Sequence record: MT446396.1
Source: Escherichia virus TH22
DNA: 64,000 nt
Strand: one strand, 5' to 3'
Under the pieces are notes generated by a model. The model searched no databases. It was not told the DNA's origin and saw nothing but the letters and a program-made list of their open reading frames with translations. The translations under genes and the position numbers were made by a program. Position 1 is the first letter of the stretch; the number at the start of each line of letters is the position of its first letter. Below are positions 16,761-21,129 of this stretch, piece by piece.

Positions 16761-17285
16761 ATGGAAGCCAAATCAATCTTTAATCTGATTAATTACAATA
16801 ATGGTAATTTTAAATCAGAAGCACAAAGCAAGTTCTTTAATGATGTTGCTTGTGCAGGTGAGATTACAGTATCAGGTGGTCAAACTTATAAAAACGCCTG
16901 GAACTGGATTGTGACTGTTGATTCAGTTGGTATTGTTGATGTGTATAAAAACACTAACAAAAACCGCTCTTTGTTCTGGTCAAGAGAGACTAATGCTGAG
17001 TATCAAGCGGCAAGAGCAAAGAAAAATATGCCAACTGAATCTGATATCCAAAACATCAAATCAGATATCCAATATTATGATGGTCTGATTGCTGAACAAC
17101 AAGCAGTGCTTGATAAGTTCAATGAAATCAAAGCATGTAAAGAGATTCCTGAATTCATGCGGGAATCAGTTAATGAACAATACAATCTCACTTCAGAGCG
17201 TATTGAAACCTATACCAAACAAAGAGCAGAGCGCCAGGTACTCCTTCAGAAGTTTGAAGAGCGTTTAAAGACGGTTCTCGCATAA
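16761..17285 (+). CDS. hypothetical protein
   Basis: Early promoter with CATACTGAGTTACCAAA leader upstream. Confidence 0.45.
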   Translation: MEAKSIFNLINYNNGNFKSEAQSKFFNDVACAGEITVSGGQTYKNAWNWIVTVDSVGIVDVYKNTNKNRSLFWSRETNAEYQAARAKKNMPTESDIQNIKSDIQYYDGLIAEQQAVLDKFNEIKACKEIPEFMRESVNEQYNLTSERIETYTKQRAERQVLLQKFEERLKTVLA

Positions 17286-17348
17286 ACGCTTTATACCAAG
17301 GATGGTATAATGGTTCTGACCTTTGATTAATCTATTGAGGAAATTATT

Positions 17349-18197
17349 ATGTCACAAGCAATTAATGAAATTCGTTCTGAAGTTAAAAAAGTTGTTAAAT
17401 TTAACAGTATTCCAAGCACTAAAGATGTGGTTTTAAATGTTCTATATATGATGTGGAATAAGTTCAATGTTTGTACTAATTCTGCTGAATTCACTAAAAT
17501 CTTTAATAAAACAACGGGCTTGCTTACATTAGAAGACCGAGTCATGAAATCTCTTCAACGTTCAGGTATGTTGTCTCGTGCTAATGTCAAAATTTTACTT
17601 AAAAATTATAATAAAGGTTATGACCTTTATGGTCGTGCGATTAGCACCATGACATTTGATGAAGTGGTCAAAGACCTTCATACTAACCAACGACGTTTAT
17701 TAGCTCTTGGTGCTCGTTTAGCAAGCGGTCAAGATAAACAAATGACCTTTAAAACCAATAATTCTTTAGATTATAAACTATTTAATGTTATTAAAGGTCA
17801 AAATGAAGGCGAATACAGTATTTCTTCTTTTAGCGGATGTCAATACGAAAACTGGAAATTCCACCTCCGTTTGGCTTTGTCTGAACTCGAACATCATGGG
17901 GTTCTTACCTTCTATGATGTTAAAACTGGAGGTGTCCAGCGCATTAAACTATGTCAAATTAAAGACCGAGTTGTAGTTGAGAGTCCTTCAGAGCAAGCTC
18001 CTAAAATGGAACCTGTTCCAGTGCGAAGCAATGAAAAATATTCAGAGCAAATTGAGCTTTTCACTAAACAGATTGAAGAACTTAACATCACTATCCAGCA
18101 GCAAGATGATGAAATTTTCCGTCTGTCAGGACTGAACAATGCAGCGAAAGCCGAACGTCAGAAACTGATGAACGTTATTGAATTGCTTAAGGATTAA
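17349..18197 (+). CDS. hypothetical protein with C-terminal coiled coil
   Basis: Extended -10 promoter (AAGGATGGTATAAT) upstream; heptad-like C-terminus. Confidence 0.5.
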   Translation: MSQAINEIRSEVKKVVKFNSIPSTKDVVLNVLYMMWNKFNVCTNSAEFTKIFNKTTGLLTLEDRVMKSLQRSGMLSRANVKILLKNYNKGYDLYGRAISTMTFDEVVKDLHTNQRRLLALGARLASGQDKQMTFKTNNSLDYKLFNVIKGQNEGEYSISSFSGCQYENWKFHLRLALSELEHHGVLTFYDVKTGGVQRIKLCQIKDRVVVESPSEQAPKMEPVPVRSNEKYSEQIELFTKQIEELNITIQQQDDEIFRLSGLNNAAKAERQKLMNVIELLKD

Positions 18198-18198
18198 T

Positions 18199-18414
18199 AT
18201 GACCATTTTGATTATCAGTATTATTTTTGGTTATCTTTTGACGGGATTTATTACTACCCTGTTGCTCCACAAGTTTGATAGTCCCTACGAAAGTGGGGAC
18301 GAGTATGATGCGGTGTTCACAACATTTTGCTGGCCTATATTCTGGGTAGTCGCTGTTATAATGTGTGTGGCCTGGCCTTTTGCTAAACTCTATAAAAAAT
18401 TATTTGGATTATGA
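18199..18414 (+). CDS. hypothetical membrane protein
   Basis: TM segments ILIISIIFGYLLTGFITTLLL and WPIFWVVAVIMCVAWPF. Confidence 0.4.
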   Translation: MTILIISIIFGYLLTGFITTLLLHKFDSPYESGDEYDAVFTTFCWPIFWVVAVIMCVAWPFAKLYKKLFGL

Positions 18415-18415
18415 T

Positions 18416-19297
18416 ATGAACATTAAAACACGTAAAGAATATTCTCGATTTGAACAGCGTGAAGGTCGTGCAACCCGTCTTATCGCGATGAATTCTCTGG
18501 TTAACTTTGGTAAAATCAAATCAGGTTCTGCCACCCAGGGGTATGGGCAACGTATTGTAAGAATTAACTCTCTGAATGATTACTGCCGCCGCCCTGCGTT
18601 TTTGTTTGGTGCCACAGTTCGTAAGAGCATTAAGGAAATCCTGGCTGGCGGGCTTCGTATTCGCAAGGCTCCGGTTAACATCAAGAACTATAATTTTAAC
18701 TCTGACAACTTGATTATCAATATCAAGAATGATGGTATACAGATTAAGTTCAAACCAACCACCAAGGGCGACGTTGCTCTTTGTGATACCTTTAAAGAGG
18801 TTATGGGTATCGCGCTGTTTTATATGCGCCATGCTGTTGAAGCATACACGTTTGAAGAAGATACAAATTATATCCACCAAACGGAAAAATTCCTTAAAAC
18901 TATAGTCATTGATATTAAATTAACTAAAGAATATCTTTTGTCTTATGCACCTTATCAAGAGAAAAAGGAACCAGAAATGGCAGAACATATCCCTACTGCG
19001 ACATATAACCCAGCAGTTACAGGTCAGTTTAAATCTTACGACCAGGCTAAAATTTCACCACTGGAAGTTAAAAATATGTATCAATGGAAAATCCAGCCAA
19101 ACAGCTCTCTTGAAATCTTTAACCCACCAATGAAGCCTATTGAGAGCTATCATGCTGATGCTATCCAGGAATCAGTCAACCGCTTAAACGGTCTGATTGA
19201 AGATGAGAAAAAGGGTATTCAGGATGTTCTGAATCGCATCAAGAATATGGAAACACAACGCAATAAATTGCAGGCGGCGATTTTAGCATTAAAATAA
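18416..19297 (+). CDS. hypothetical protein with C-terminal coiled coil
   Basis: ATG overlapping upstream stop; C-terminal heptad-like segment. Confidence 0.5.
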   Translation: MNIKTRKEYSRFEQREGRATRLIAMNSLVNFGKIKSGSATQGYGQRIVRINSLNDYCRRPAFLFGATVRKSIKEILAGGLRIRKAPVNIKNYNFNSDNLIINIKNDGIQIKFKPTTKGDVALCDTFKEVMGIALFYMRHAVEAYTFEEDTNYIHQTEKFLKTIVIDIKLTKEYLLSYAPYQEKKEPEMAEHIPTATYNPAVTGQFKSYDQAKISPLEVKNMYQWKIQPNSSLEIFNPPMKPIESYHADAIQESVNRLNGLIEDEKKGIQDVLNRIKNMETQRNKLQAAILALK

Positions 19298-19355
19298 TGT
19301 TTACTTCCAAGGATGGAGGGAGTATAATGAATTCCTACTTTATGAGGAGAACACT

Positions 19356-20345
19356 ATGACACGTAACGAATATATCCAGGCCTTTAACACCACTATCGAT
19401 GCAAAAGTAAAACCATTAATAGGTGAATCGGCTATCCTTTTAATTATCAATTACTGGTTAAATCAGATTGACTCGACGATTGTTGCATCCGGGCGCTTCA
19501 AGAAAGACATTGCGACTATTGCGAGCCGTGCCGGTAAAGATGATATCAAGAAAACTTTTAAAGGTTCCCGAGTCCTGGCATACCTGGTTAATAAAGACCT
19601 TCTTAATAAGTTTGGCGTTGAATCCAGACATGGTAAAGGTACAATTGGATATCATTGGTTTGGTGATGTTGAAAAATACTACCTTGATAAACAAGGCTAT
19701 ACTGTTTCTGAATTCGCAAATTGCTGGGCTCGTGAATTCAGAGATAACAAAATGTCTATCATCAAATCAGCGACAAAATTGATGGGTAGCGATTATCGCA
19801 CTATCTCCCATTTGGCTGAGCACATGATAAATGTTAAAGAGTCTGGTGAAAACCAGGTAATTATTACAGTTAAGTATGAATTCTTTACGCCGGTAGCTAC
19901 TCCAGAAAATGTCAAAAAGTATCTTGATGCCGCGAGCACGCTTACTTCACAGATGCAGTGCGCCCTTAACTATATGCGCACTGTTGAAAAAATTAAAGTA
20001 GACCCTATCACCAGTACTCATGGTTGGAAAGGTTGGAAAATTGTGGTGACATTACGCGAAGTTAAATGCGCAAAACAACCAACTGATGCAGAAATTTATA
20101 AAAAGAAAAGTGAGGAAATTATGAATGCTCCGCAAGAAACCACCCTTGAAGACCTGATTGATAATCTGAATAATGAGCCAGTGGAACAAAAAGCGCCTGA
20201 AATTGTTGCTCTGGAAATGGCGTATAATAAAGCTCTTGCTGTTAATAAAAAGGCAACTGAAGACTATACCAAAGCCAAGCGACTTTGGGAAGAATCAACT
20301 AATCGTCTGGATAAACTGGAACAGGCTCTGGAGCTACTGAAATGA
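19356..20345 (+). CDS. hypothetical protein with C-terminal coiled coil
   Basis: Extended -10 promoter (GGAGTATAAT) upstream; C-terminal heptad-like segment. Confidence 0.5.
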   Translation: MTRNEYIQAFNTTIDAKVKPLIGESAILLIINYWLNQIDSTIVASGRFKKDIATIASRAGKDDIKKTFKGSRVLAYLVNKDLLNKFGVESRHGKGTIGYHWFGDVEKYYLDKQGYTVSEFANCWAREFRDNKMSIIKSATKLMGSDYRTISHLAEHMINVKESGENQVIITVKYEFFTPVATPENVKKYLDAASTLTSQMQCALNYMRTVEKIKVDPITSTHGWKGWKIVVTLREVKCAKQPTDAEIYKKKSEEIMNAPQETTLEDLIDNLNNEPVEQKAPEIVALEMAYNKALAVNKKATEDYTKAKRLWEESTNRLDKLEQALELLK

Positions 20346-20635
20346 AACAACGTTTAGCTGAAGATATTGCAGAAACTGCATTTCCAGAATGGACCCCCGC
20401 AGCGGGGTTTAATAAAGGTCTTATAAACTGGACTGATGATTATAGTCAGGTTCCCGATTGGGATATGGTAATGGCTATGGTTCGCCGCCGTGAACGTGCT
20501 TCTAAGAGCGTTCCTAACTGTCCAGAATGTGGAACTGAACAGGTCCAGTTAGTCCATTGGCAGACTAGTACTCTTCGTTACAAATGCAGACATTGTAAAC
20601 ACAAATTTGAGCGAGACGAAAATGGCAAAGCGTAA
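20342..20635 (+). CDS. hypothetical zinc-ribbon protein
   Basis: CPECG...CRHC pattern. Confidence 0.45.
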
Positions 20636-20864
20636 AGAATATCTTGAGACTGCTGATAAGGCGGTCCGTGAATTAACTCTGGCCTATTATAAAGAACACG
20701 GTAAACTTCCGGATAGTTATTCAGTATTGAAATCTGCTTTAACTCGTTCATATAATAATATGCGTTCAGAAGTTTATGGTATTATGGTCAAACATAAAGA
20801 ACAAACCGGTCAATACCCCGATTATACTGAGACCTTCAAACAAGTATTAGGAATTAAGGAATAA
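20607..20864 (+). CDS. hypothetical protein
   Basis: Start may be ATG 20622 instead. Confidence 0.4.
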
Positions 20865-20865
20865 T

Positions 20866-21129
20866 ATGTTTAAAGTATATGGTTATGATTCATCTATTCA
20901 TCGCTGTGTATTCTGCGATAATGCAAAACGTTTTTTGGATGTTAAAAAACAACCTTACGAGTTCATCAACGTTATGCCAGAAAAAGGTGTGTTTGATGAT
21001 GAGAAGATTGCCCAACTCCTGGCTGCACTTGGTCGCGAATCTCAAATTGGTTTGACCATGCCGCAAGTATTTGCTCCTGACGGAAGTCATATTGGCGGCT
21101 TTGACCAACTGCGAGAATATTTTAAATGA
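20866..21129 (+). CDS. nrdC: thioredoxin/glutaredoxin NrdC
   Basis: 87 aa; MFKVYGYDSSIHRCVFCDNAKR...GLTMPQVFAPDGSHIGGFDQLREYFK closely matches T4 NrdC. Confidence 0.9.
   Translation: MFKVYGYDSSIHRCVFCDNAKRFLDVKKQPYEFINVMPEKGVFDDEKIAQLLAALGRESQIGLTMPQVFAPDGSHIGGFDQLREYFK

Follow-up and report, generated by a model that had tools for sequence, protein, structure and literature searches.

Three adjacent plus-strand genes at positions 17,349 to 20,345 of a 64,000-nucleotide (nt) stretch of Escherichia virus TH22 (MT446396.1; the whole stretch is hereafter the window) encode proteins that, by their sequences, are homologs of T4 NrdC.6, NrdC.5 and NrdC.4, in that order. Each protein joins a head to a linker and a C-terminal helical tail. 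The three are probably remote paralogs, their superfamily is restricted to T4-like phages, and their tails are conserved more strongly than their heads. We consider it probable that they are diverged tandem paralogs, accessory proteins of head-linker-coiled-coil design that would most likely act in counter-defense and oligomerize through the tail. An earlier note on this DNA had viewed them as a set of different effectors with unrelated N-terminal regions sharing one oligomerization or targeting module; the picture of a shared module on unrelated effectors should give way to one of tandem paralogs that diverged while keeping a conserved coiled-coil stalk. Many early genes of T4-like phages have no assigned function, and one gene of this cluster decides T4 infection of Dsr1-carrying E. 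coli.

Identity of the three genes

The open reading frames (ORFs) lie at 17349-18197 (282 amino acids [aa]), 18416-19297 (293 aa, ATG start) and 19356-20345 (329 aa), as the earlier note had placed them, and the C-terminal sequences it quoted are correct. A 4-kb stretch around the genes shares 97.8% nt identity with Escherichia phages UPEC07 and TH55 and 92% with vB_EcoM_VR7 (Straboviridae, Tevenvirinae, Gaprivervirus). The window thus belongs to a VR7-like coliphage, a T4-like phage of the genus Gaprivervirus. VR7 annotation names the three ORFs NrdC.6, NrdC.5 and NrdC.4, with nrdC.8 upstream and nrdC.2, nrdC.1 and nrdC downstream, and the order nrdC.8, nrdC.6, small ORF, nrdC.5, nrdC.4, nrdC.2 is syntenic among Gaprivervirus phages.

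All three proteins matched their family profiles over their full length (E 1e-100 to 1e-138). The nrdC.6 product, 99% identical to VR7 NrdC.6, matched phrog_2257 (E 3.6e-122), and its homologs carry PF26899. The nrdC.5 product belongs to DUF7235 (PF23882, phrog_2351), with 388 bits against PF23882 (cutoff 30) and residues 1-293 placed on profile positions 9-307 of 307. The nrdC.4 product matched phrog_1435, the NrdC.4/NrdC.3 family, over residues 1-329 (E 6.6e-138). Its gene sits upstream of nrdC.2, and all its homologs have a precomputed PF26897 assignment.

Protein anatomy and C-terminal tails

Monomer models of NrdC.5 and NrdC.6 predicted by AlphaFold2 (AF2), together with heptad patterns, support a modular architecture in which each protein consists of a globular head, a disordered linker and a terminal coiled-coil helix. 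In NrdC.6 (predicted local distance difference test [pLDDT] 79), the head spans residues 1-206 and is helical plus beta-beta-alpha-beta-beta, residues 207-228 are disordered, and a terminal helix covers 232-281 with a kink at 261-263 (helices 232-260 and 264-281). In NrdC.5 (pLDDT 65 overall), the head spans 17-177, disorder extends over 178-240, and a single helix covers 242-292 (pLDDT 77-86). The order beta-beta-alpha-beta-beta, linker, helix is common to both models. A structure search found no solved structure resembling the fold.

The heptad-like tails described by the earlier note are real. Hydrophobic residues fill 0.75-0.86 of the a/d positions along the 6-7 unbroken heptads of each tail, versus 0.15-0.17 elsewhere in the proteins. 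As a coiled coil we counted at least five uninterrupted heptads with hydrophobic a/d positions in a predicted helix; all three tails exceed that heptad number, and AF2 renders those of NrdC.5 and NrdC.6 as one long helix. On the plus strand, the NrdC.6 tail is encoded at 18033..18194 (aa 229-282; heptad a = IIIINRI, d = FLQLALL), that of NrdC.5 at 19136..19294 (aa 241-293; a = AVIIIRI, d = ILEVMLL) and that of NrdC.4 at 20196..20342 (aa 281-329; heptad occupancy 0.86). Heptad register relative to the C-terminus is identical among the three, with the final Leu-Lys at d-e positions in the best register of each; in NrdC.6 one further residue follows it. The terminal motif K-L-x3-[AILV]-x2-L-K is common to the tails, and an Arg at an a position ([EQ]-R-x-K-L) is common to NrdC.5 and NrdC.6. 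The NrdC.4 tail is unusual in having Tyr/Tyr/Trp at a and Ala/Ala/Ala/Ser at d.

How far the tails resemble one another depends on the null model. C-terminus-anchored, ungapped profile scores for all pairs of NrdC.3, NrdC.4, NrdC.5 and NrdC.6 (42 columns) beat free column permutation (p <= 0.0014), with z of 2.6-4.8 over the last 16 columns. When permutation preserved the heptad register, z was just 0.5-2.2 (p 0.02-0.31). The proposed similarity above that of random coiled coils therefore holds against a composition-only null, but barely once register is kept. Tail-only hidden Markov models (HMMs) did not detect the tails of other families (E >= 0.18 among 201 window ORFs), and the NrdC.5 tail weakly matched an SMC coiled coil (E 0.016). 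NrdC.8, which also ends in a helix, scored at background against the NrdC.3-6 tails in the same profile tests, so the tests do discriminate. A set of 299 ORFs from 17 loci, each 90 aa or longer, was scanned for the loose ending [LIVMA]-x2-[LIVMA][LIVMA][KN] no more than one residue from the C-terminus; among ORFs longer than 150 aa, it occurred in NrdC.3, NrdC.4, NrdC.5 and NrdC.6 proteins only. As judged from these comparisons, register, termination point and the last ~10 residues are nearly all that the tails of different paralogs have in common, an argument against a single shared binding partner.

Probable remote homology of the heads

BLASTP gave no significant pairwise match among the three proteins. 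Profiles were compared with hhalign; shallower first alignments gave weak matches, which improved once T4-type sequences were added. T4 NrdC.3 and NrdC.4 aligned over 224 columns (probability 98.3%, E 2e-14). In a HMMER search of 1.84 billion representative proteins the NrdC.4 profile also retrieved NrdC.3 (E 2.5e-7, and 1.7e-20 in a local search), and in PHROGs phrog_1435 holds both. A merged NrdC.3 and NrdC.4 profile aligned with NrdC.5 over 232 collinear columns reaching the last residue (probability 62%, E 7e-5) and, weakly, with NrdC.6 over 195 collinear columns (probability 21%, E 1e-3). Beyond NrdC.3 versus NrdC.4, seven cross-family comparisons scored 24-41, versus 10.9-20.0 for all 16 of 16 reversed-profile controls, and outside the tails the alignments were collinear over 127-232 columns.

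Fold searches of BFVD agree with these matches. The NrdC.5 and NrdC.6 models retrieved the same uncharacterized proteins (A0A7G3KGN9, A0A0A0PZG4 and A0A1V0DXL6; E 1e-3 to 2e-8), which are 300-335 aa long and come from T4-like phages of Enterobacter, Pectobacterium and Yersinia. The NrdC.5 model also matched an NrdC.6-family protein, A0A2K9VMF6 (E 2e-3). These shared matches are supportive, not decisive. In the DNA, nrdC.5 and nrdC.4 have in common a direct repeat of 34 nt (79% identity; 18409-18442 and 19340-19373) over the ribosome-binding site (RBS) and first codons, reading M-[NIK]-T-R-K-E-Y against M-T-R-N-E-Y in protein, and a 21-nt repeat connects the promoter regions of nrdC.6 and nrdC.4. 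The ancestral ATG of nrdC.5 has been lost, its start having shifted 9 nt upstream into the old RBS region.

Together, the profile, fold-search and DNA-repeat results indicate an ancient tandem duplication of whole transcription units. The N-terminal regions, thought unrelated in the earlier note, are thus probably those of remote paralogs, given collinear profile matches above reversed controls and shared fold-search matches. Head homology among NrdC.3-6 is firm for NrdC.3 and NrdC.4, probable for NrdC.5 and weak for NrdC.6. Of the module proposed earlier, the modular architecture stands, and its grafting onto unrelated proteins does not, since the whole proteins are probably diverged tandem paralogs. 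NrdC.8, considered as a fifth family member, was rejected with all scores at background. Its gene (16761-17285, 174 aa, 68% identical to T4) encodes a protein ending in a helical, AERQ-containing tail.

Distribution, conservation and natural variants

The superfamily occurs only in T4-like phages. The NrdC.4 profile retrieved 7 representatives among 1.84e9 proteins, with no bacterial homolog evident among these 7. tblastn with NrdC.4 hit 553 phage records, all from T4-like phages of enterobacteria, and scans of viral contigs returned close T4-like relatives only. Paralog number varies by genus, with three in the window phage and Dhakavirus and four in Tequatrovirus.

In each of the three families, conservation is highest in the tail. 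The NrdC.5 tail is nearly invariant across 21 homologs, many columns of the NrdC.6 tail are invariant across 30, and the last block of the NrdC.4 family is its most conserved (0.88). For two metagenomic NrdC.4 variants (P0110 and P0215), identity to the window protein is 25% over the body and 73-80% over the last 49 residues. These mosaic relatives point either to replacement of the head or to very strong purifying selection on the tail.

Salmonella phage Manna (PP987310.1) encodes an in-frame chimera of an NrdC.6 head and an NrdC.4 tail, Manna_094 (345 aa; locus L027 2703-3740). Residues 1-270 are NrdC.6 head (HMM E 8e-116) and residues 263-345 are NrdC.4 linker and tail (E 6e-45). The two parts meet at a shared 'DEI', and the phage has lost NrdC.5 and most of NrdC.4. 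Because this fusion is unique (1/527 records), we treat it as an anecdote and not as evidence of selection. NrdC.6 of Shigella phage Sf25 (P0199, 378 aa) has an internal tandem duplication of ~82 residues that takes in the last beta-hairpin and the linker together with the beginning of the tail.

Genetic evidence for counter-defense

The function of one family member in T4 has been approached genetically. A T4 clone with deletions that include nrdC.5 cannot plate on ECOR17 unless dsr1 is deleted, and in MG1655 dsr1 by itself is enough to give protection from the clone (Srikant et al., eLife 2022, PMC9391042). Plasmid-borne T4 nrdC.5 restores plating of the deletion mutant on dsr1 cells, and the genes deleted in that clone are dispensable on MG1655 (PMC9391042). 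This evidence is genetic and concerns the T4 protein (PMC9391042). By analogy with T4 NrdC.5 counteracting Dsr1, the 'effector' role proposed in the earlier note is plausible for the three window proteins. For the neighboring family, T4 nrdC.8 is among the genes down-regulated in DRT1-expressing cells (2026 DRT1 paper, PMC13275509).

Proposed mechanism and alternatives

Under the reading we favor, tandem duplication would have generated a single superfamily, found only in T4-like phages, that comprises T4 NrdC.3, NrdC.4, NrdC.5 and NrdC.6. Members would be built from a fast-evolving alpha/beta head with a beta-beta-alpha-beta-beta core, 20-60 residues of disordered linker, and an amphipathic helix of 50 residues running to the C-terminus. 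The genes would be non-essential and accessory, read from early or middle promoters as two units, the first consisting of nrdC.6, the small ORF and nrdC.5 and the second of nrdC.4 and nrdC.2 with its own promoter. Each tail is predicted to form a family-specific coiled coil. According to the Harbury rules, Ile or Val at a combined with Leu at d points to a parallel dimer; this combination, plus Asn or Arg at a, would make parallel dimers of NrdC.5 and NrdC.6. The coiled coil may tether two or more heads on flexible linkers and so permit bivalent binding. Host proteins would be the targets of the heads, and oligomeric immune effectors are the likeliest of these, on the genetic precedent of T4 NrdC.5 and the SIR2-domain protein Dsr1; duplication with head divergence could then yield a small panel of counter-defense proteins. 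We infer such roles for NrdC.4 and NrdC.6. If the four proteins form a single diverged family in which variable heads sit on a common stalk, its three uncharacterized paralogs become obvious candidate inhibitors of other defense systems.

A more ambitious version of this model, which we rate as rather unlikely, would make NrdC.3-NrdC.6 a duplicating platform with a variable head on a constant coiled-coil stalk. Each paralog would neutralize a different oligomeric immune effector, Dsr1 being the first known, and the stalk would supply multivalency or hetero-assembly that jams effectors.

Several points weigh against the favored reading. NrdC.5 and NrdC.6 are linked to the other members by weak profile scores (probabilities 2-62%) from shallow profiles (number of effective sequences [Neff] about 2). 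Foldseek template modeling (TM) scores are low (0.2-0.5), as is expected because two rigid parts sit on a floppy linker. The putative coiled-coil dimer is deduced from monomer predictions and heptads. Within a family, invariance extends to many tail residues on the surface (non a/d), more than a plain homodimerization helix would require, so the tail probably does more than join two helices; these residues differ across paralogs, which argues against a partner common to all. Window NrdC.5 is only 27.5% identical to that of T4 (E 1e-25; tail 30%), so anti-Dsr1 activity may not transfer. Finally, our literature search found no paper on the function of NrdC.3, NrdC.4 or NrdC.6, and no published account of the mechanism, direct or indirect, by which T4 NrdC.5 acts against Dsr1.

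The explanation offered in the earlier note, that unrelated effector domains each gained the same oligomerization or targeting module docking on one common partner or place, is in our view doubtful. It would fit the strong conservation of tails within families, surface positions included, the drop of heads to 25% identity while the tail holds 73-80%, the in-frame NrdC.6-head/NrdC.4-tail fusion in phage Manna, and the fact that all tails end K-L-x3-hydrophobic-x2-L-K in the same register. Between families, however, the common part is limited to a/d positions and the last ~10 residues (register-preserving z 0.5-2.2; cross-family tail HMMs not significant). The heads are moreover collinear and probably remotely homologous, so the shared tail would have been inherited, not grafted, and the Manna chimera, seen in 1/527 records, may be merely a tolerated deletion.

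It is unlikely that the paralogs instead co-assemble, through tails of equal length and register, into a hetero-oligomeric coiled coil showing several different heads. Paralog number differs by genus, the T4 reference NrdC.6 tail is frameshifted, Manna is without NrdC.5, and T4 nrdC.5 alone on a plasmid rescues the deletion mutant. These facts outweigh, in our judgment, the common length, register and termination point of the tails, the adjacency and partial co-transcription of the genes, and the Tyr/Tyr/Trp at a and Ala/Ala/Ala/Ser at d of NrdC.4, which would pack well on a different helix. Counts of g-e' charge pairs gave no preference for hetero-pairs and are uninformative for homo- versus hetero-assembly.

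Convergence, in which three unrelated small phage proteins would each end in a generic coiled coil with no common origin or function, strikes us as quite unlikely. The lack of significant pairwise BLASTP matches, a tail similarity near that of register-matched coiled coils, and the SMC match of the NrdC.5 tail at E 0.016 would be natural under convergence. It leaves unexplained the collinear alignments over 127-232 columns outside the tails that beat reversed controls, the fold-search targets common to the NrdC.5 and NrdC.6 models, the DNA repeats at start codons and promoters, and the background scores of helix-ended NrdC.8 in the same tests.

That the proteins are thioredoxin-like or act in nucleotide metabolism, as the adjoining nrdC gene and the 'thioredoxin' label of many GenBank records would have it, is highly improbable, for no profile or fold search in this analysis supports that label or reveals a thioredoxin fold or family. 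Homologs of nrdC.1 to nrdC.9 (window 17349-20864) are widely mis-annotated as 'thioredoxin' in many GenBank records; among them, a resemblance to thioredoxin or glutaredoxin is seen for nrdC itself (20866-21129) only. The label seems to have spread from gene names, and the present analysis corrects this widespread mis-annotation. Overall, the observation is real but ordinary in kind, concerning known T4-type hypothetical families of which one has a published counter-defense role. What is new, to a modest degree, is the link into one superfamily and the way a conserved tail contrasts with a variable head.

Promoters and neighboring genes

The earlier note had each gene driven by its own early promoter. 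We took as early promoters an upstream intergenic region with a -35 element (GTTTAC/TTGACA-like) and a -10 TATAAT at 16-18 nt spacing. An early-type site of this kind precedes nrdC.4 only, at 19300..19328 on the plus strand (TTTACT, 17 nt, TATAAT; 10/12 consensus; spacer with CCAAGGATGG), and T4 has a homologous element upstream of both nrdC.4 and nrdC.3. The site upstream of nrdC.6 (17287..17311, plus strand) combines CGCTTTA, which resembles a MotA box, with a 12-nt spacer containing CCAAGGATGG and a TATAAT. Its -35 hexamer matches the sigma-70 consensus at 3/6 positions, and a nearly identical element lies upstream of T4 nrdC.7. Judged against the known T4 MotA-box consensus, this site looks more like a MotA-dependent middle promoter than an early one. 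Ahead of nrdC.5 there is no intergenic space, a single base separating its ATG from the end of the preceding ORF. Of the three genes, only nrdC.4 and nrdC.6 thus have a promoter-like site of their own. Such sites are no commoner in the region than in shuffled sequence (18 found, 15.3 expected), so the assignments rest on position and conservation in T4.

CCAAGGATGG occurs in both promoter spacers, at window 17296-17305 and 19307-19316. Its T4 counterparts upstream of nrdC.7, nrdC.4 and nrdC.3 are the variants CCACAAGGATGTGG and GCCAAGGATGGC, which implies compensatory stem changes around an AGGA loop. The element may fold into a small, conserved hairpin that perhaps serves in the processing or stability of read-through RNA.

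The small ORF between nrdC.6 and nrdC.5 (18199..18414, plus strand) encodes a conserved, hydrophobic product of 71 aa (phrog_7899, E 2.2e-27) that is probably a membrane protein. It is separated by 1-nt gaps from both nrdC.6 and nrdC.5 and is an annotated CDS in UPEC07 and VR7. The nrdC.4 stop overlaps the nrdC.2 start (ATGA).

Comparison with T4 and other phage systems

T4 has the same gene order as the window, with the addition of nrdC.3 and nrdC.7. In place of the 71-aa ORF of the window, T4 carries the membrane protein NrdC.7 upstream of nrdC.6. T4 NrdC.3 is a clear paralog of NrdC.4 with the same type of tail, and the window phage carries no copy of it. The window orthologs are 48% identical to T4 NrdC.4 (phrog_1435; E 1e-108) and 48% identical over the head to T4 NrdC.6 (phrog_2257; PF26899). 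The NrdC.6 tail is intact in the window, whereas in the T4 reference it was lost by frameshift with its coding sequence still downstream. There (NC_000866) the protein is frameshifted near its end and has 275 aa, and a 70-nt 'intergenic' stretch between nrdC.6 and nrdC.5 (locus L003 5997-6066) still codes for the normal tail ...SSKAKSEREKLIKIVDLLKS*. Other Tequatroviruses have intact NrdC.6 proteins of 295-296 aa. With T4 NrdC.5 (phrog_2351, DUF7235) the window ORF has in common its family, its place between nrdC.6 and nrdC.4, the head-linker-helix layout and the C-terminal ending ...KL..A...AL[KN]. Besides its low overall identity, the window protein differs in lacking ~45 residues after the conserved N-terminal MKTR motif.

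Outside this group, DSAD1 of SPbeta-like phages, an inhibitor of DSR2, is likewise described as a phage protein that neutralizes a SIR2-domain NADase defense protein (PMC10973363, PMC11087589). DSAD1 comes from another phage group, its target is DSR2 and not Dsr1, and it has no reported C-terminal coiled coil; the likeness is one of function only.

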